From the IMG/VR virus record IMGVR_UViG_2802429240_000008: a stretch of 44,891 nt of DNA; one strand, written 5' to 3'. Shown piece by piece: positions 4,017-17,443 of this stretch (its first letter is position 1; every line of letters starts with the position of its first letter). The notes below the pieces were generated by a model. That model was not told the DNA's origin. It did no database searches and saw only the letters and a list, made by a program, of their open reading frames with translations. This stretch comes from a virus. Lineage: Duplodnaviria > Heunggongvirae > Uroviricota > Caudoviricetes. The position numbers and the translations under genes were made by a program.

Positions 4017-4238
4017 TCACCATGACTCTGCTTTTACAGGTAAACCATCACGACCAAGGAAGACTTTAATCATGGTTTCCTTAATACAGTGTTGTGTGGA
4101 AAAATCACGAATATAGAGCCGTTGTTTTTTAATGTTGTTTACCGAAGCAATATATGTTCTTCCTTTATGAATAACATAATCACCGGGAGTCACGCACTGA
4201 CGAGGAATCTCATCAGTTCCGAAGTGATGAGCAATCAT
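4017..4238 (-). CDS. kilR: Kil-like cell-division inhibitor (KilR family, 73 aa from second ATG)
   Basis: [22 protein letters not shown]... resembles Rac KilR as I recall it; the internal ATG at 4236-4238 has a GGAGA RBS 6 nt upstream, whereas the track ORF start at 4250 has none. Confidence 0.5.
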
Positions 4239-4412
4239 AATTATCTCCATTTTTACAAATGAACTTTGTTGATGCGGTGCCTGGTGCCTCCAGGTGACGT
4301 TAACCAGTTAACAATTAACGCCGGATACAGAGAATCCACCCATAACACTGTTTTTGGTTTTAACTGTTCCGCGTGCGCTTAGCCGCATTCACCGCATCAC
4401 AAAATTCACTTT

Positions 4413-4470
4413 AAAAAGGGCGGCAGAGCAGTCACGGAGTAAAACTGATTCCGCCAAACGCCACCAGAAA
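4413..4470 (-). ncRNA. dicF: DicF small RNA (53 nt, 4418-4470) plus 3' U-tract
   Basis: Reverse complement of 4418-4470 is TTTCTGGTGGCGTTTGGCGGAATCAGTTTTACTCCGTGACTGCTCTGCCGCCC, about 2 mismatches from the E. coli K-12 DicF sequence as I remember it, followed by TTTTT; located downstream of small dicB-operon-like ORFs. Confidence 0.8.
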
Positions 4471-4804
4471 ATTGATAACAGAGGGCGTTGTAGCGGGGGT
4501 GTCACTTAAGCGTATGGTCAACCTGACAACCCGGTGTCCTCAACGGGGAAGGAATAACCCCGCCATACTTACCGCCGCGCCATTTCGCGGAGTGCCACAA
4601 CCGGAAGCGCACGGTCGACGAAAATTTAACGACAGGCTATCTATGAACCAGCAACCTCGCCGTGCGCTTTCGTGTTATGGTCTGACTTTTCAGGGAAATA
4701 TCCTTTCAGTAAACTGTCAGTGCCGGATGCTCACCCGTGTCCGGCGCACGCACTCCACCTCACCCGTGGAGAACTCCTTAATCACCAACCCTCAGGAGGG
4801 TGAA

Positions 4805-5080
4805 ATGTCGACTGAAAATGATGAAATCATTAACTCCCTGATACGCCAGATTAATAATTTTGATAAAGCATTGCAGCATGCTGCGGCGCGTAGTGATATA
4901 ACTCTTTTAGCAATTTCATTTCTTGCATCTGTTATGGATAAAAATGAAGTCGTACGACAGAGTCTTGTTGATTATATCGACTCGCTTCAACCCGGCACTT
5001 TCAATCATGAGAGCTTCAATCATGAGAAAGAGCATGTTAAATCTGTTATTAATTCTCTTGTTTTGAATCAAAATAATTAA
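4805..5080 (+). CDS. Hypothetical protein (91 aa), AT-rich accessory gene
   Basis: ATG at 4805 preceded by AGGAGGG RBS; opposite strand to the surrounding leftward operon; the track ORF 4472-5080 extends upstream only because there is no in-frame stop and would run across dicF. Confidence 0.45.
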   Translation: MSTENDEIINSLIRQINNFDKALQHAAARSDITLLAISFLASVMDKNEVVRQSLVDYIDSLQPGTFNHESFNHEKEHVKSVINSLVLNQNN

Positions 5081-5378
5081 TGCTTTTTGTTGCAAAGTAA
5101 TTTTCAAGGGGTTCTATTCGAATCCCTTTCTTTTTCATTAACAAGCCAAACCCCTTATCAATGATGTTCATTAATTCCAGGAAGTATTTTTCATGCAAAT
5201 CCTGGTTATCAGAGAGTTGCTTCTCTTCGTACAACCCGATAAAGGCGCGACGCACGTTACCGGATATATTATCGATGGTTTCTTTTTCTACGGTACTCAG
5301 GTCAAGAGTCGCCAGTTGGGAACGAACTATATTCGCTGCCATTTCCTGGAATGGTATTGGTAAATCTTTAAATTCCAT
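5049..5378 (-). CDS. Hypothetical protein (109 aa from MEFKDL...)
   Basis: ORF in the leftward immunity operon; internal ATG at 5376-5378 has GAGG RBS; 3' end overlaps convergently with the 4805-5080 ORF by about 30 nt. Confidence 0.5.
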   Translation of the reverse strand: MEFKDLPIPFQEMAANIVRSQLATLDLSTVEKETIDNISGNVRRAFIGLYEEKQLSDNQDLHEKYFLELMNIIDKGFGLLMKKKGIRIEPLENYFATKSINYFDSKQEN

Positions 5379-5393
5379 CGTCAACCTCATCAG

Positions 5394-5609
5394 TCAGTAG
5401 TTTTCAATCACTCGTGAAACGTTTAATGCCGCGCTTTTTGCCAGAGTGGTAATATCCTGCTCCGCTGACGCCAGTTCTTTAGAGAGGCGCTCTTTATAGT
5501 CAGCAGCCCGCTTCAGGTCATTAATGGCGCGTATCTTCCCGCACATCCATTCGTAAATTTCATCATCGGTATAGCCTGGTGCGATGATGATGGGTTCTGG
5601 TTTCTGCAT
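5394..5609 (-). CDS. Small hypothetical protein (71 aa), YdfC-like position
   Basis: ATG at 5607-5609 with GAGGA RBS 8 nt upstream; third small ORF downstream of the dicA-like repressor. Confidence 0.55.
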   Translation of the reverse strand: MQKPEPIIIAPGYTDDEIYEWMCGKIRAINDLKRAADYKERLSKELASAEQDITTLAKSAALNVSRVIENY

Positions 5610-5638
5610 ACTGATTCCTCGCGGTGCTGCTTCGCTTA

Positions 5639-5767
5639 TCAGCCGTTAGATTTTGCCGAGCTGGAAAGCGCCTGTTTAAACTCACTGAAGCTGAGAGCTT
5701 CTTCGCCTTCGGCAAGGCCTTCGAAGTATTCTTCGTAAGCCTTTTCCATGATTGTGTCGAAATCCAT
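5639..5767 (-). CDS. Small acidic protein (42 aa, MDFDTIMEKAYEEYFEGLAEGEEALSFSEFKQALSSSAKSNG), YdfB-like position
   Basis: ORF below the track threshold found by manual translation of the minus strand; tightly packed between neighbouring minus-strand ORFs. Confidence 0.4.
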   Translation of the reverse strand: MDFDTIMEKAYEEYFEGLAEGEEALSFSEFKQALSSSAKSNG

Positions 5768-5768
5768 A

Positions 5769-5924
5769 TCACTCACCTGAGTTTCTTTCCAGCCAGCGAC
5801 GGGCACCATTTTCGGTTTTAAACGTTTTGCTTTTGGTATACGTCATCGCGGTGAACGTGCCGTCCTGGTTGGGAAACACGCCGCACACCAGAGATTCGTT
5901 GTTGCCAAGATCGATAGTATCCAT
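5769..5924 (-). CDS. Small protein (51 aa, MDTIDLGNNESLV...), YdfA-like position
   Basis: Internal ATG at 5922-5924 with GAGG RBS 6 nt upstream; the longer track ORF start at 6017 lies inside the predicted promoter/operator. Confidence 0.45.
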   Translation of the reverse strand: MDTIDLGNNESLVCGVFPNQDGTFTAMTYTKSKTFKTENGARRWLERNSGE

Positions 5925-5995
5925 GCTGACCTCATTTCCCCTTAACGCCGGGGGAGCGGAACTGTTTGCTGAGAACACCGTGCGGTGTCTTGATG

Positions 5996-6056
5996 GATGA
6001 TAATTTAGTTTTCTCATGAAAATTGGTCAAGAGTTTTTGGTGAGAAAACTCAATAT
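5996..6056 (-). promoter_or_regulatory. Candidate leftward promoter (TTGACC-N17-TAAATT on minus strand) flanked by two repressor-operator-like inverted motifs
   Basis: Minus strand reads TTGAGTTTTCTCACC..CTCTTGACCAATTTTCATGAGAAAACTAAATT; motif GAGAAAACT occurs at 6041-6052 and inverted at 6007-6016, and again at 6575-6588. Confidence 0.4.
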
Positions 6057-6116
6057 TTAATACAAAATAAAGCCAATACATTGAAATGTAAGGCTTTAAA
6101 ATTTGTGAAGGGGGGG

Positions 6117-6524
6117 TTATTGATGTTTGTTACGTTTGCGAGCTTCTAGTAGCTCGGTGAATAGGCGATTAAAATTCTCAACGCGGGCACGGAGTTCGCT
6201 GATTTGTGCTTGCTGCTCTGATTTTGGAAGTGCGCGATACAATCGCAACATCTCCAACTCATCTTCCGATAAGTCTAAGGCGCTGTTGAGTGCAACTGGT
6301 GGATCTGGTGTTTTATCCTCGTCACCAAACAGTATCCAAGTTGGTGAACATTGCAATACCTCAGCCAGGCGATGCAAATTTTGCCCGCGCGGGGCTGTAT
6401 GGTCGCTTTCCCATAGTGAAATTGATGAGCCAGATACGCCAGCAGCTTTGCTTAAATCGTTTTGACTTAAACCAACCTGTTTGCGTCTTTCTCTAATTCG
6501 TTGACCTAAAGTTTTCTCGTTCAT
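6117..6524 (-). CDS. dicA: DicA-like HTH (XRE family) prophage repressor, 135 aa
   Basis: N-terminal HTH (LGQRIRERRKQVGLSQNDLSKAAGVSGSSISLWE) and C-terminal LQCSPTWILFGDEDK...ELRARVENFNRLFTELLEARKRN closely resemble E. coli DicA as I recall it; same length; divergent from a Cro-like gene. Confidence 0.85.
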   Translation of the reverse strand: MNEKTLGQRIRERRKQVGLSQNDLSKAAGVSGSSISLWESDHTAPRGQNLHRLAEVLQCSPTWILFGDEDKTPDPPVALNSALDLSEDELEMLRLYRALPKSEQQAQISELRARVENFNRLFTELLEARKRNKHQ

Positions 6525-6601
6525 ATTTAGATATCTTAATAACCCTTGACTTGAGATTCCTTGAGTGATTACTATTGAGAAAACTCAACTTTGGAGGGGT
6601 G
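6525..6601. promoter_or_regulatory. Divergent promoter / operator region between the dicA-like and dicC-like genes
   Basis: Contains TTGACT (6546-6551) and the inverted repeat TTGAGAAAACTCAA (6575-6588) just upstream of the dicC-like start. Confidence 0.4.
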
Positions 6602-6829
6602 ATGTTTAAATCAGACGTAATTAATTTTTATGGGACGAAAGCCAAAGTAGCAAAAGCTGCTGGTGTTGATCCATCTGCTGTTTCTCAATGGGGGGAACTG
6701 GTTCCTGAAGGTCGCGCGATGCGCCTGCAAGAGGCATCCGGCGGGGAACTTCAGTACGACCCCAAAGTTTATGACGAATATCGTAAGGCAAAGCGGGCGG
6801 GGCGGTTGAACAATGAAAATCACCCCTGA
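6602..6829 (+). CDS. dicC: DicC/YdaS-type Cro-like regulator (75 aa)
   Basis: ATG at 6602 just downstream of GGAGG; C-terminal PEGRAMRLQEASGGELQYDPKVY...RAGRLNNENH resembles DicC as I recall it; divergent from the repressor gene. Confidence 0.65.
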   Translation: MFKSDVINFYGTKAKVAKAAGVDPSAVSQWGELVPEGRAMRLQEASGGELQYDPKVYDEYRKAKRAGRLNNENHP

Positions 6830-7364
6830 ACAGGTTTGTGAGGCTCTGGATGCCTGGGTATGCCGACCAGGAATGACACAGGAGCAGGCGACGATATTAA
6901 TCACGGAAGCATTCTGGGCTCTGAAAGAACGCCCGAACATCGATGTTCAACGCGTCACGTTTAATGATGGCGAGGTTGATCAACGGGCGCTGGGCGTTAA
7001 CCGGGTGAAGATATTCGAACGCTGGAAAGCTATCGACACCAGGGATAAGCGGGAAAAATTCACGGCGCTGATTCCGGCAATTATGGAGGCTATCCGGATC
7101 AGCGATTTCAGGTTGTATTGTGAAATTACTGACGGAAAAAGCATTACGTACATGATCGCCGGGTTAAACAAAGAATATGGCGATGTGGTGGAGTCCGGGC
7201 TGCTTTTTGCGGATCCATCTGTTGTGGAACGTGAGACTGACGAGCTTATAGAAAAAGCTATTGCTTTCAAGCATGCGTATCGTCAGCAATATCAATATTA
7301 CTTTGCAGATAAACAAATGTCTGCCAGGGGTTCGTATGAGTATCGATGCACTACGATGGGCTAA
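6813..7364 (+). CDS. Hypothetical early protein (183 aa), possibly YdaT/CII-like
   Basis: ORF directly after the cro-like gene with short overlaps at both ends; family assignment is tentative, from memory only. Confidence 0.45.
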   Translation: MKITPEQVCEALDAWVCRPGMTQEQATILITEAFWALKERPNIDVQRVTFNDGEVDQRALGVNRVKIFERWKAIDTRDKREKFTALIPAIMEAIRISDFRLYCEITDGKSITYMIAGLNKEYGDVVESGLLFADPSVVERETDELIEKAIAFKHAYRQQYQYYFADKQMSARGSYEYRCTTMG

Positions 7365-11248: not shown

Positions 11249-11371
11249 CCTGACCTGAGGCATTCACTACGGTAGGAATTGCGATGGCGGTGGCGCTGGT
11301 GGTGCATTCGATTTGCCGATGGGGATAAAAACGGTTTGCGGGAAAAGGAGAGTTAAGTAGAATTGCTGCGG

Positions 11372-11516
11372 GTGCTTGAGGCTATCTGCCTCGGGCATGA
11401 ACACCAACGGCAGATAGATAAAAGCCCCACCCGACTATAAATCGAAGTGAGGCCCCTATATGCTCGTCACATATAGATTGCCTCTTACGGACCGAAAGGT
11501 CAAGGAGAAGCAGGCT
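11372..11516 (+). promoter_or_regulatory. hok mRNA 5' leader with in-frame upstream start (mok-like, ATG 11460); expected location of an antisense Sok-like RNA
   Basis: GCTTGAGGCTATCTGCCTC resembles the 5' end of hok-family mRNAs as I recall it; 8-bp inverted repeat tatctgcc/ggcagata; in-frame ATG at 11460 gives a 70-codon ORF. Confidence 0.4.
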
Positions 11517-11672
11517 ATGAAGCAGCAAAAGGCGATGTTAATCGCCCTGATCGTCATCTGTTTAACCGTCATAGTGACGGCACTGGTAACGAGGAAAGAC
11601 CTCTGCGAGGTACGAATCCGAACCGGCCAGACGGAGGTCGCTGTCTTCACAGCTTACGAACCTGAGGAGTAA
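11517..11672 (+). CDS. hokD: Hok/Gef family type I toxin (51 aa)
   Basis: MKQQKAMLIALIVICLTVIVTALVTRKDLCEVRIRTGQTEVAVFTAYEPEE: single TM helix and conserved C-terminal Hok motif; appears to match HokD (RelF) from memory; AAGGAGAAG RBS. Confidence 0.85.
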   Translation: MKQQKAMLIALIVICLTVIVTALVTRKDLCEVRIRTGQTEVAVFTAYEPEE

Positions 11673-11769: not shown

Positions 11770-11892
11770 TTTCAACGCGTTTGAAGTTCTGGACGGTGCC
11801 GGAATAGAATCAAAAATACTTAAGTAGCGCGCAGGGAGAAGAGGGATGGACCCCAAACAGGGGAGTGCTATTTATCTGGAAGGATTCTGTTG

Positions 11893-12153
11893 ATGAAAAT
11901 CGAAGAATTACGTGAAATTTTTAGTGAAGATGGCCTCTATACTGTGCGCGTTGAGAATGGCGCTATTGTCAGCCACTGCCGTATTAAATGTTTACAGTCT
12001 CAACAAAGGAAGAGTGGAGCTGCGTTAATTCATTTGGTGGATGGGCTTGTGACGGATGGTTTTATTTTGCGTGCAAATGAATTTGTCACATCGTTGCCGT
12101 CTCTGAAAGAAGCTGGGATTAAGGCTGGTTTTTCTGCTTTTGAAGATGAGTGA
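11893..12153 (+). CDS. Hypothetical protein (86 aa)
   Basis: ATG at 11893; ORF between the hok locus and the DUF968 gene; no recognisable domain. Confidence 0.45.
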   Translation: MKIEELREIFSEDGLYTVRVENGAIVSHCRIKCLQSQQRKSGAALIHLVDGLVTDGFILRANEFVTSLPSLKEAGIKAGFSAFEDE

Positions 12154-16432: not shown

Positions 16433-16633
16433 TCATGAAAGATAAACATTGGCAGCTGAAGGTCCACGTAGACCATTGATTCGGCAAAATTCCACGCGTA
16501 ATCCTGTGGTAATTTCTTCTGCATCGCGGAGATTGAGAGCAGAAACGTGCAGCTGGACATCGATACGGCCATCGGATGGTATGATAAGACCTTTGCCGCT
16601 TTTGTAGTCAAAGGTTTTGACAATTCCTGTCAT
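16433..16633 (-). CDS. cspF: Cold-shock protein, CspA family (CspF-like, 66 aa)
   Basis: [34 protein letters not shown]...[16 protein letters not shown]: cold-shock domain with RNP-like motifs; divergent from a second csp gene. Confidence 0.8.
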
Positions 16634-16946
16634 TTTACGGGACAAAAAAAATTCCTTAATACTGATAACTTGGCGCACTATACACACGTTCCTGAAGAAA
16701 GCTATAGTTTTTTGATGGGGTTGAAGATGGCTGGATGTCTAAAATAAACATTGCTTCATATGTTCAACTATGCGTTAATGATTGCGTCGGTTTGAAGAAC
16801 AGACGATATACGAAGTAGTTTACTAAAGCAGTTCTCATTTCAGGTGTTATTCACTTATTCCTTCTTTGAGTCTCTCCAATTAAGTACGAAGTCGTTTCTG
16901 TTATACAAACCATTTATGCCGAAAGGCTCAAGTTAAGGAATGTAGA

Positions 16947-17162
16947 ATGTCAAATAAAATGACTGGTTTAGTAAAATGGTTTAACGCTGATAAAGGTTTT
17001 GGCTTTATTTCTCCTGTTGATGGTAGTAAAGATGTGTTTGTGCATTTTTCTGTGATTCAGAATGATAATTATCGAACCTTATTTGAAGGTCAAAAGGTTA
17101 CCTTCTCTGTAGAGAGTGGTGCTAAAGGTCCTGCAGCAGCAAATGTCATCATTAATGATTAA
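16947..17162 (+). CDS. cspB: Cold-shock protein, CspA family (CspB-like, 71 aa)
   Basis: [53 protein letters not shown]...: canonical cold-shock domain; AAGGA RBS. Confidence 0.9.
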
Positions 17163-17443
17163 AATTCATAGTTTGTCTGTATACGATAACGAAGAAGGCT
17201 GATGCCTGAGTGGAGATACAGACAGAGTGGTGAATATTGGATCTCTTTAATAAAGAGTAAGGAGGTCCAATACATGAAACAATGGCCAGCATATTTGGTA
17301 ATAACTTAATCAGGAAAAGTATGCTAACCATTGTGGTGAAGTGCAGGTTTGCTGCATGAATAGTTTTACAGCAGAAGCTAACTGCTGGCATAGCAAAACA
17401 AAGTGCGTAAGTGGATGACTCTCACAAAAAGCACCACAATATT

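Follow-up and report, generated by a model that had tools for sequence, protein, structure and literature searches.

Putative operators of a P22-C2/DicA-type immunity switch in a common Escherichia coli prophage

Closest described immunity systems

The repressor of phage P22 binds six symmetric sites (PMC4267663), and the P22 OR and OL can be aligned site for site with those of the locus described here. This locus lies in a 44.9-kb stretch of viral DNA that was analyzed as a whole and is called the window below. P22 and the window share a right-hand scaffold consisting of the repressor CAT, a first operator, TTGACT, a second operator, -10, a third operator, ribosome-binding site and cro, and on the left both place two operators around GGTCAAG, though only two left-hand sites are evident in the window as compared with OL1-3 in P22. 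In both, arms flank a 4-bp A/T centre (5+4+5), which is the contact layout in P22 (PMC4267663) and is read from the sequence in the window. P22 OL TTTGAAGAAAACTTAAAT and the window OL1 share a GAAAAC centre, whereas the P22 arm TTAAG becomes TTGAG in the window, with G for A as the third arm base counted from the centre. The window arms, (A/T/G)TGAG or TTTAG, also depart from the P22 arm consensus ATTTAAG, whose outer positions 1-2 are not conserved in the window. The recognition helix is S-N-V-A-I-S-Q in P22 C2 and S-G-S-S-I-S-L in the window, and C2 carries an S24 autocleavage domain where the 135-aa window repressor has a short helical C-terminal part. Judged from the sequence, it is nevertheless the P22 operators to which the window operators are closest in half-site and geometry, and the N-terminal domain of the window repressor matches that of P22 C2 (PDB 1adr, E 2e-15; 2r1j, E 8e-15).

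The Qin prophage of K-12 is the second close relative. Its repressor DicA (56% identity, E 2e-51), its Cro-like protein DicC (71% identity, E 2e-41), ydfA, ydfB, DicF and Rem are orthologous to those of the window, its operators stand at the same places in OR and around the dicBp -35, and its left-hand sites are 35-36 bp apart. As in the window, the repressor is not cleavable and an antirepressor is encoded (PMC10448788). In vivo, DicA binds Oc and loses this binding on a single base change, and the Om and Oa equivalents are not bound by DicA on their own (PMC3441716). For DicC, ChIP shows peaks to either side of dicA, together with a palindromic TT(A/C/T)G...C(G/A/T)AA motif (PMC11430063). 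The comparison with mapped DicA operators suggested in the preliminary description of this DNA gave agreement in position but not in sequence, K-12 having TTGTTAGTCATAACTAACAA at the same position. K-12 Oc reads TTGTTAGTTATGACTAACAA, with TTAG arms and a 6-bp centre, as opposed to TTGAGAAAACTCAA in the window, and by this sequence difference the window belongs to a separate immunity type. Since the helix-turn-helix (HTH) segments of DicA and DicC both differ from those of the window regulators, the K-12 and window prophages should be heteroimmune. In addition, dicB of Qin is replaced in the window by a Kil-like gene.

More distant systems share parts of this arrangement. Lambda has divergent repressor and cro genes, three OR sites at 24-25 bp spacing overlapping two promoters and a second operator cluster at a leftward promoter downstream of the repressor gene, all of which recur in the window. 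Its operators, however, are unrelated 17-bp sequences, its OL has three adjacent sites and its cI is RecA-cleavable, unlike the window repressor. Long-range looping between OL and OR has been shown for lambda; in the window OL and OR are 535 bp apart. The sites of phage 434 are 14 bp long, with contacted arms of about 4-5 bp and an uncontacted central 4-6 bp, the A/T content of which modulates how tightly they are bound. In the PDB, 434 Cro and 434 repressor match the N-terminal domain of the window repressor less strongly. The 434 arms (ACAA...TTGT) and promoter scaffold differ from those of the window, and the homology is more distant. The Gifsy repressors GfoR and GfhR, likened here by description, are short, non-cleaved and inactivated by small antirepressors (PMC10448788); the window has a Rem homologue. 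The architecture itself is the classical lambdoid one and no concept is changed by it.

Two control regions around the repressor gene

The repressor gene (6117-6524, minus strand) encodes 135 aa with an N-terminal HTH and the recognition helix S-G-S-S-I-S-L-W-E. HTH_3 (E 1.2e-16) was the sole kind of domain found with Pfam, which gave no Peptidase_S24 match in this protein. The preliminary description had placed a DicA-like repressor between the motif copies, and the domain and the identity to K-12 DicA agree with this. Divergent from it, on the plus strand, is the dicC/cro-like gene (6602-6829, 75 aa), a member of the P22_Cro family (E 1.1e-17) with the ribosome-binding sequence GGAGG upstream (6593-6597). 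The HTH segment of its product, GVDPSAVSQW, is different from that of K-12 DicC.

In the intergenic region, a consensus scan placed a rightward early promoter at 6546-6575 (plus strand), with a -35 TTGACT (6546-6551), an 18-bp spacer and a -10 TACTAT (6570-6575), from which transcription would start near 6582. By sequence it is the homologue of dicCp and PR, and its -35 is invariant across four immunity types. The strong candidate operator of the Oc/OR1 type, the inverted repeat TTGAGAAAACTCAA at 6575-6588, has perfect 5-bp arms and extends from the last -10 base to about +6, directly after the -10 of the dicC promoter as K-12 Oc does. The earlier claim of a site between dicA and dicC stands, this copy lying over the -10/+1 of the promoter from which the dicC/cro-like gene would be transcribed. 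Two further candidates, weaker and with 8/10 half-site matches each, complete an OR of three sites at 24-25 bp spacing. The Om/OR2-type site TTGAGATTCCTTGA (6551-6564) overlaps the rightward -35 and spacer, is nearly invariant in 51 unique same-type sequences and aligns with P22 OR2 (ACTAAAGATTCCTTTAGT), the two having the centre GATTCCTT in common. The Oa/OR3-type site TTTAGATATCTTAA (6526-6539) adjoins the repressor start codon, at the position of P22 OR3 and K-12 Oa, and is invariant in the 51 sequences and in a Buttiauxella relative. Both weak sites were chosen after the fact. The Oa-type site also overlaps a -10-like TAAGAT (6538-6533, minus strand), which, if it were the -10 of the repressor gene, would yield a nearly leaderless repressor mRNA. 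In our own reading of the window for a PRM-like repressor promoter this -10-like element had no convincing -35; the K-12 dicA promoter is not recognizable either (PMC3441716, PMC7567609).

A further partial copy (minus strand ACGAGAAAACTTTA) lies at 6507-6520, inside the repressor gene. It contains an exact 9-mer (6510-6518, minus strand, within codons 3-5), but both of its arms are poor (6/10). It is missing from Buttiauxella L090, L120 and L201 and altered in L080 and L180, and in L159 (TGAGAAAACTCT) it is nearer to the consensus, 11/12 through two synonymous changes. A general, conserved operator at this place was rejected, since diverged repressors with this specificity have changed or lost the copy although their three main sites are retained. 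The copy is either coincidental or an auxiliary site particular to the lineage.

On the other side of the repressor gene, a leftward early promoter was found by consensus scan at 6002-6030 (minus strand), with a -35 TTGACC (6030-6025), a 17-bp spacer and a -10 TAAATT (6007-6002). Transcription from it would start near 5995, and its sequence identifies it as the homologue of K-12 dicBp and P22 PL; K-12, P22 and PPompW have all kept the GGTCAAG scaffold. The inverse copy AGTTTTCTCA (6007-6016) extends on the minus strand to TGAGAAAACTAA (6005-6016), with one mismatch. Written as a 14-mer, this is the OL2-type candidate operator TTTAGTTTTCTCAT (minus strand ATGAGAAAACTAAA) at 6004-6017, which covers the spacer and four bases of the -10, and its single mismatch can be explained by the outer CTAAA arm doubling as part of the -10 TAAATT. 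OL2 is nearly invariant across the 51 unique sequences while both its flanks vary, and it is invariant in Buttiauxella. The direct copy TGAGAAAACTCA (6041-6052) is part of the OL1-type candidate GTGAGAAAACTCAA (6040-6053), which can be aligned both with P22 TTTGAAGAAAACTTAAAT and with the upstream site of K-12 dicBp. Both left-hand sites had been described as overlapping the leftward -35/-10. Together they bracket the -35; 6004-6017 does overlap the -10, but 6040-6053 lies 10 bp upstream of the -35, at about -58 to -45. The centres of OL1 and OL2 are 36 bp, or about 3.4 helical turns, apart, with no obvious fit to side-by-side cooperativity.

Between the repressor stop codon and OL1, an intrinsic-terminator-like hairpin followed by a U-rich run occupies 6062-6106 (minus strand). 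It folds at -13.7 kcal/mol (z-score -4.1), a stability that none of 200 shuffles reached. Downstream of the leftward promoter, the conserved leader 5925-5995 was considered as a put- or nut-like antiterminator RNA; its fold is unremarkable (z -0.16), with only two compensatory pairs in a 4-bp stem. The leftward operon, presumably repressed from OL, occupies 4017-5924 (minus strand; tblastn, Rfam and phrog matches). It contains ydfA (5772-5924, 98%), ydfB (5642-5767, 100%) and a ydfC-like gene (5394-5609, 56%), all by tblastn, a 113-aa ORF (5049-5390), the DicF sRNA (4418-4469; Rfam DicF, 69 bits) and a Kil-like septation inhibitor (4017-4250; phrog_294 Kil, E 2.6e-34), which stands in the place of dicB, for which tblastn found no match. 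Much farther to the right, on the plus strand, is a homologue of the antirepressor Rem (11890-12150; tblastn, 70% identity to K-12 Rem). By analogy with the function described for Rem (PMC10448788), it is likely the inducer route for the non-cleaved repressor; motif scans of the window found no operator copy near it.

Clustering, conservation and co-variation of the motif

The motif copies are concentrated in the control regions to an extent that excludes chance. Allowing one mismatch, the 12-mer has three matches in the window, at the positions originally described, against 0.32 ± 0.58 expected from shuffles that preserve dinucleotide content, and 0 of 100 shuffles reached three. The exact 9-mer GAGAAAACT occurs four times in the window (0.31 expected), each time inside 6007-6585. 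Within the window, this answers the whole-prophage motif scan that had been proposed as a check: no excess was found elsewhere in the window, and near rem, the Q gene, the late genes and the rest of the prophage nothing rose above chance in the 44.9-kb scan. At two mismatches the 12-mer has nine matches against four expected, the six additional ones, all elsewhere in the window, being close to the chance level. Likewise, sites with 8/10 half-site matches are no more frequent overall than expected (18 vs. 18.0), but within the 148 bp that make up the two control regions there are five against 0.06 (Poisson P about 6e-9). The three copies of the preliminary description are thus present as the strong ones, with arms TTGAG/CTCAA around AAAA, but they are not the full set, which comprises three strong and two weak copies besides the intragenic 9-mer. 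In the literature, the motif string was matched only by unrelated eukaryotic primer sequences, and no description of the binding sequence was found in the literature searched.

Conservation follows the boundaries of the motif. Among 51 distinct same-type sequences, motif columns average 1.5 variant sequences as compared with 7.7 in the 6-bp flanks (P 3e-6). A Buttiauxella relative with a 75% identical repressor keeps all three motifs although the surroundings of the two left-hand sites have diverged; its right-hand control region, being 92% conserved over its whole length, is less informative for a footprint. In the reverse direction, all 73 IMG/VR loci with the OL pair and enough flanking sequence encode a repressor with S-x-S-(S/T)-I-S-L-W-E, and in 72 of the 73 TGAGAAAACTCA is found 523-526 bp from the OL pair. 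Of 5426 complete E. coli genomes, 797 (about 15%) carry the immunity type.

Across about nine immunity types (that of the window, K-12, PPompW, P22 and five or six more among loci L091-L104), each has its own palindromes in both OR and OL on a shared promoter scaffold. The best 12-mer match of an OR has a mean of 1.08 mismatches to its own OL and 2.33 to the OL of other loci. Heteroimmune relatives swap exactly the operator blocks and keep the promoter hexamers, and the palindromes that they have there change in step with the recognition helices of both regulators. Some natural prophages with an identical repressor carry a mutated OL1 or OR1 (TGATAAAACTCAA, TAAGAAATCTCAA, TTAAGAAAACTCAA), implying either that single sites tolerate changes or that those prophages are decaying. 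For the variants in L044 and L059, a sub-immunity type was rejected given the unchanged DicC HTH and, in L059, the damage to both -35 hexamers as well; they look more like cryptic-prophage decay.

Competing readings and the proposed switch

We put at roughly 0.9 the probability that the motifs serve as operators in a lambdoid immunity switch related to those of P22 C2 and DicA. An alternative that we regard as quite improbable is that the sites serve one regulator alone, for example the DicC homologue, and that the repressor reads something else or mainly the weak sites. In K-12 it is indeed for DicC that direct genome-wide evidence places sites to either side of dicA (PMC11430063), the DicA site at dicBp is rated as low-evidence with its location unknown (PMC7567609), and co-variation with the operators is as good for the HTH segment of the DicC homologue as for the repressor helix. 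Set against this are the in vivo binding of K-12 DicA at Oc, abolished by one base change (PMC3441716), the strong repression of dicBp by DicA (PMC10448788), the occupancy of all six sites by the repressor in the homologous P22 system (PMC4267663) and the tracking of operator type by the repressor recognition helix over about nine types.

It is less probable still that the repeats act as RNA or DNA structure, with 6005-6016 and 6041-6052 forming a hairpin that serves as terminator, processing site or cruciform. The two leftward copies are mutually inverted and could pair over about 10 bp, and each site is partly palindromic by itself. This hairpin reading was rejected, since its loop would be about 24 nt long with no U-run after it, the inverted pair has no Rfam family match, a far better terminator hairpin lies separately at 6062-6106, the third copy is 535 bp away in a different transcription unit, and relatives show whole-motif swaps that track protein helices in place of compensatory stem changes. 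Incidental similarity with no sequence-specific regulator (UP-element-like A-tracts or remnants of a duplicated promoter) would suit an A-rich motif in A/T-rich promoter DNA and the common ancestry of leftward and rightward control regions in lambdoid phages, but it can hardly be sustained when dinucleotide-preserving shuffles give 0.3 matches vs. 3-4 observed, the motif is conserved while nearby A/T-rich bases drift, and heteroimmune relatives replace exactly the motif blocks with the promoter hexamers kept.

Very probably, then, judging from sequence comparison, the motif set consists of the sites through which the repressor and its Cro-like partner keep a common E. coli prophage silent. The DicA-type control of the dicC and dicB promoters that had been proposed fits the positions, homology and co-variation, but with a different immunity specificity and with no dicB in the operon. 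We infer that a dimer of the 135-aa repressor would bind each roughly 14-bp site, TTGAG-AAAA-CTCAA, each HTH reading one 5-bp arm, with the A-tract centre probably uncontacted and read via DNA shape as in P22. The leftward promoter, predicted to drive ydfABC, DicF, kil, recE, xis and int, would be silenced by repressor bound at 6004-6017 (spacer and -10) and at 6040-6053 (upstream of the -35). The rightward promoter, predicted to drive the dicC/cro-like gene, a cII-like gene and replication genes, would be silenced from 6575-6588 (-10 to +1) with help from the weak site 6551-6564. The weak site 6526-6539 would be the OR3 equivalent, where the Cro-like protein or excess repressor could turn the repressor gene down. 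Because the repressor lacks an autocleavage domain, induction is expected via the Rem-like antirepressor or by spontaneous switching.

A broader idea, which we hold tentatively and consider rather doubtful, is that the DicA/P22-C2 family forms an orthogonal repressor-operator series with a fixed scaffold and a readable code, and that the lineage of the window uses an extra operator inside repressor codons 2-6, which could serve to autoregulate a nearly leaderless transcript. Under such a code, Leu for Gln at helix position 37 may accompany G for A as the third arm base (TTGAG for TTAAG/TTAG), and His32 may accompany G as the second.

The operators define the probable immunity specificity of a prophage type carried by about 15% of complete E. 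coli genomes, in which silencing holds back cell-division inhibitors (DicF, Kil) as well as lytic functions. Known operators would allow co-resident or incoming phages to be predicted as homo-immune or heteroimmune, and would aid the annotation of control regions and the mining of orthogonal repressor/operator pairs.

Operator-type sites at both early control regions

The three sequences that the preliminary description placed around the DicA-like repressor gene are all present exactly as described, the motif is real, and the comparisons presented here support its interpretation as repressor operators, with corrections to the promoter overlap and the addition of further sites. With up to one mismatch, the 12-mer TGAGAAAACTCA has three copies in 44,891 bp (6005-6016 on the minus strand, 6041-6052 and 6576-6587), where 0.32 are expected and none of 100 dinucleotide-preserving shuffles gave three. 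All four exact copies of the 9-mer GAGAAAACT (0.31 expected in the whole window) lie between 6007 and 6585. Allowing two mismatches adds six matches outside the control regions, about the chance level; across the whole prophage, copies cluster at the control regions and occur elsewhere at roughly chance frequency. An arm-only score, counting matches in two 5-bp arms (TTGAG, 4 bp, CTCAA) with a threshold of at least 8 of 10, gives 18 sites in the window, no more than the 18.0 that shuffles average; the two control regions, 148 bp in all, contain five of these (0.06 expected; P about 6e-9). This scoring adds two weak sites, TTTAGATATCTTAA (6526-6539) and TTGAGATTCCTTGA (6551-6564).

A promoter consensus scan of 5700-6900 found two promoters, a predicted leftward one on the minus strand (-35 TTGACC 6030-6025, 17 bp, -10 TAAATT 6007-6002) and a predicted rightward one on the plus strand (-35 TTGACT 6546-6551, 18 bp, -10 TACTAT 6570-6575). 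The earlier statement that the left-hand copies overlap the -35/-10 is only half right: the 14-mer at 6004-6017 lies over the spacer and some of the -10, with one mismatch because its outer arm CTAAA belongs to TAAATT, but the 14-mer at 6040-6053 sits 10 bp upstream of the -35. The right-hand 14-mer (6575-6588) starts on the final base of the -10, extends to about +6 and, together with the weak sites, makes a three-site region with centres at 6532.5, 6557.5 and 6581.5, spaced by 25 and 24 bp. Downstream of the repressor gene and ahead of the leftward operators is a terminator-like hairpin with a U-rich tail (6062-6106, minus strand; -13.7 kcal/mol, z -4.1), which would shield the leftward promoter from read-through of the repressor transcript. 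Before this hairpin, three bases past the repressor stop, is a run of seven G (6107-6113; C7 on the coding strand), whose length ranges from about 5 to 8 across prophages that hardly differ otherwise; a comparable G-run is present in PPompW.

The fourth exact GAGAAAACT, overlooked initially, lies within the repressor gene (6510-6518, minus strand; codons 3-5, N-E-K-T). By our rough estimate about 0.005 exact 9-mers are expected in 600 bp. As a 14-mer (6507-6520) it has poor arms (ACGAG/TAAAG), and it is lost in Buttiauxella L090, L120 and L201; two synonymous changes in L159 turn it into TGAGAAAACTCT (11/12), nearer the consensus. Either chance or an auxiliary role particular to this lineage may explain it.

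Conservation and co-variation with the repressor helix

At 99-100% identity the repressor is encoded in 80 IMG/VR loci; of 5426 complete E. coli genomes, 797 carry the 645-bp immunity block. In an alignment of 51 distinct same-type sequences covering 5975-6612, the 42 motif columns have a mean of 1.5 variant sequences, compared with 3.7 in other intergenic columns (P 0.002) and 7.7 in the 6-bp flanks (P 3e-6); weak site 6526-6539 is invariant and 6551-6564 nearly so. Buttiauxella gaviniae, with a 75% identical repressor (helix S-D-S-S-I-S-L-W-E) and a diverged surrounding leftward promoter region, retains all three strong motifs. A reverse search of IMG/VR for AGTTTTCTCA-N16-30-TGAGAAAACT returned 80 loci. 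Wherever the flanks were long enough (73 loci), a DicA-like repressor with helix S-x-S-(S/T)-I-S-L-W-E is encoded, and some of these repressors (e.g., L120, L183) are unlike that of the window at many positions; TGAGAAAACTCA lies 523-526 bp from the leftward pair in 72 of the 73.

Some prophages with an identical repressor have an altered upstream left site (OL1) or strong right site (OR1). Both TTAAGAAAACTCAA (right) and TAAGAAATCTCAA (left) are found in L044 and L059, and TGATAAAACTCAA in L013, L009 and L025, with the repressor and DicC HTH unchanged; L016 likewise has a natural operator variant. Both -35 hexamers of L059 are mutated too, which suggests a decaying cryptic prophage. In some relatives (HannyBb, L003, 1951-2409; L088-L090) an in-frame ATG arises from a C/T difference shortly before the right-hand operator, so that the repressor is annotated as 152 aa, reading through the whole rightward region. 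This is probably an annotation artefact, given a length of 135 aa for K-12 DicA as well as for the window protein.

Species-representative genomes were scanned with the family alignment, giving 20 loci, which together with K-12, PPompW and P22 form about nine immunity types. All share a scaffold (right -35 TTGACT; left GGTCAAG/GGCAAG), and each has its own palindrome in both control regions: TGTTAGAAAAGTCTAACA with helix A-H-V-T-I-S-Q in L095, CCTTAGGAAAATCTAAGG in PPompW, TAACAAAAGTTA with S-S-V-S-V-F-K in L101, and CTCAACAA-type arms with H-A-T-I-S-L and Y-A-S-I-S-L in L091 and L092. At their best 12-mer match, the promoter-proximal part of the right-hand operator region and the left-hand region differ by a mean of 1.08 mismatches within a locus and 2.33 between loci. 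TTGAG arms accompany Leu at helix position 37, TTAG/TTAAG arms accompany Gln, and the Cro-like HTH segment splits likewise (D-P/R-S-A-V-S-Q-W versus R-L-A-S). Judged from sequence, this co-variation is as expected for operators and unlike incidental promoter sequence. PPompW (L006) and L095/L096 have the helix A-H-V-T-I-S-Q-W-E-R-D in common and differ in outer arm bases (CCTTAGG versus TGTTAGA), thus residues beyond the helix must add to specificity.

Correspondence with K-12 Qin and P22

The 20-bp inverted repeat Oc of K-12 Qin (TTGTTAGTTATGACTAACAA) occupies the position equivalent to 6575-6588: it directly follows the dicC -10 and precedes the ribosome-binding site. DicA binds Oc in vivo, and one base change abolishes binding (Yun et al., PMC3441716); Om and Oa, predicted from sequence, did not bind DicA on their own in that work (PMC3441716). 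At dicBp, TTAGCCATGACTAA and a degenerate copy around GGTCAAG correspond to the two leftward sites of the window. This promoter is repressed by DicA and relieved by Rem (PMC10448788), and its DicA site continues to carry a low-evidence rating (PMC7567609). A 2024 preprint reports that DicC ChIP-seq signal is strongest in the regions flanking dicA, and gives a palindromic motif, TT(A/C/T)G...C(G/A/T)AA (PMC11430063).

In its N-terminal domain the repressor shows homology to the DNA-binding domain of P22 C2 (1adr, 2r1j; E 2e-15). Aligning the window with a P22-type immunity region (L229) matches the two site by site: OR3 adjoins the repressor start, as does 6526-6539, OR2 (ACTAAAGATTCCTTTAGT) aligns with TTGAGATTCCTTGAG, OR1 sits after the -10, and ATTTAAGACTTCTTAATT and TTTGAAGAAAACTTAAAT lie around GGTCAAG on the left. 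P22 repressor binds six symmetric 18-bp sites, contacting positions 2-7 and 12-17 and reading the central four bases indirectly, with A/T favoured (PMC4267663). The geometry of the window motif is the same, whereas the third base of each arm is G in the window and A in P22, and residues 44 and 46 are Ala and Arg as opposed to Glu and Asn. The P22 E44A mutant has reduced sensitivity to non-contacted central bases (PMC4267663). The window repressor has Ala44, yet each of the three strong sites keeps AAAA at its centre, which would fit a P22-like indirect readout through a narrow minor groove.

Prophage context and proposed switch

The window is a Qin-like lambdoid prophage, with integrase, excisionase and RecE-like exonuclease at its left end, a cII-like/YdaT-family gene and replication genes. 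The 135-aa HTH repressor (6117-6524, minus) is 56% identical to K-12 DicA, conserved in its C-terminal half and divergent in the HTH region; the divergent P22_Cro-family gene (6602-6829, plus) encodes a protein 71% identical to DicC, with divergence restricted to the HTH segment. The leftward operon holds ydfC-like, ydfB and ydfA genes and DicF sRNA (4418-4469, minus; Rfam, 69 bits). No dicB match was found in the window by tblastn, and its K-12 dicB/ydfD place is taken by a 77-aa Kil-like septation inhibitor (4017-4250, minus; phrog_294, E 2.6e-34). The roughly 70-nt leader of the leftward transcript (5925-5995, minus), upstream of ydfA, is near-identical in K-12, PPompW and L095 despite different operators and contains a pair of small hairpins (ACACCG..CGGTGT and CCCC..GGGG); less closely related loci retain a GTTC(C/T)G box and a hairpin with other stem sequences. 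This leader could act in processing or as a nut- or put-like site; its fold energy is unremarkable (z -0.16), with only two compensatory pairs. As in K-12 Qin, cspB/cspF-like cold-shock genes lie inside the prophage (16436-17227), with a full-length cspA thermoregulator element (RF01766, 150.8 bits). A homologue of the DicA antirepressor Rem (11890-12150, plus; 70% identity) adjoins a hokD/sok module (11370-11669); in the DNA upstream of the Rem homologue we saw nothing resembling an operator, nor any other obvious control element.

Elements of this kind are already thoroughly known; because the motif is in no phage or repressor paper of the literature searched, operators of this immunity type appear to be undescribed there. 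The classical operator reading is the best one. Repressor dimers on the two leftward sites and on 6575-6588 (with 6551-6564) would block RNA polymerase at both early promoters, and the Cro-like protein would act at the same sites, the weak site at the repressor start being a likely route to shutting off repressor synthesis. Binding, promoter start sites, any cooperativity (the 36-bp leftward spacing is not obviously in phase for it) and the role of each weak site are what we infer. Since the repressor is without an S24 domain, derepression would be expected to proceed through the Rem-like antirepressor.
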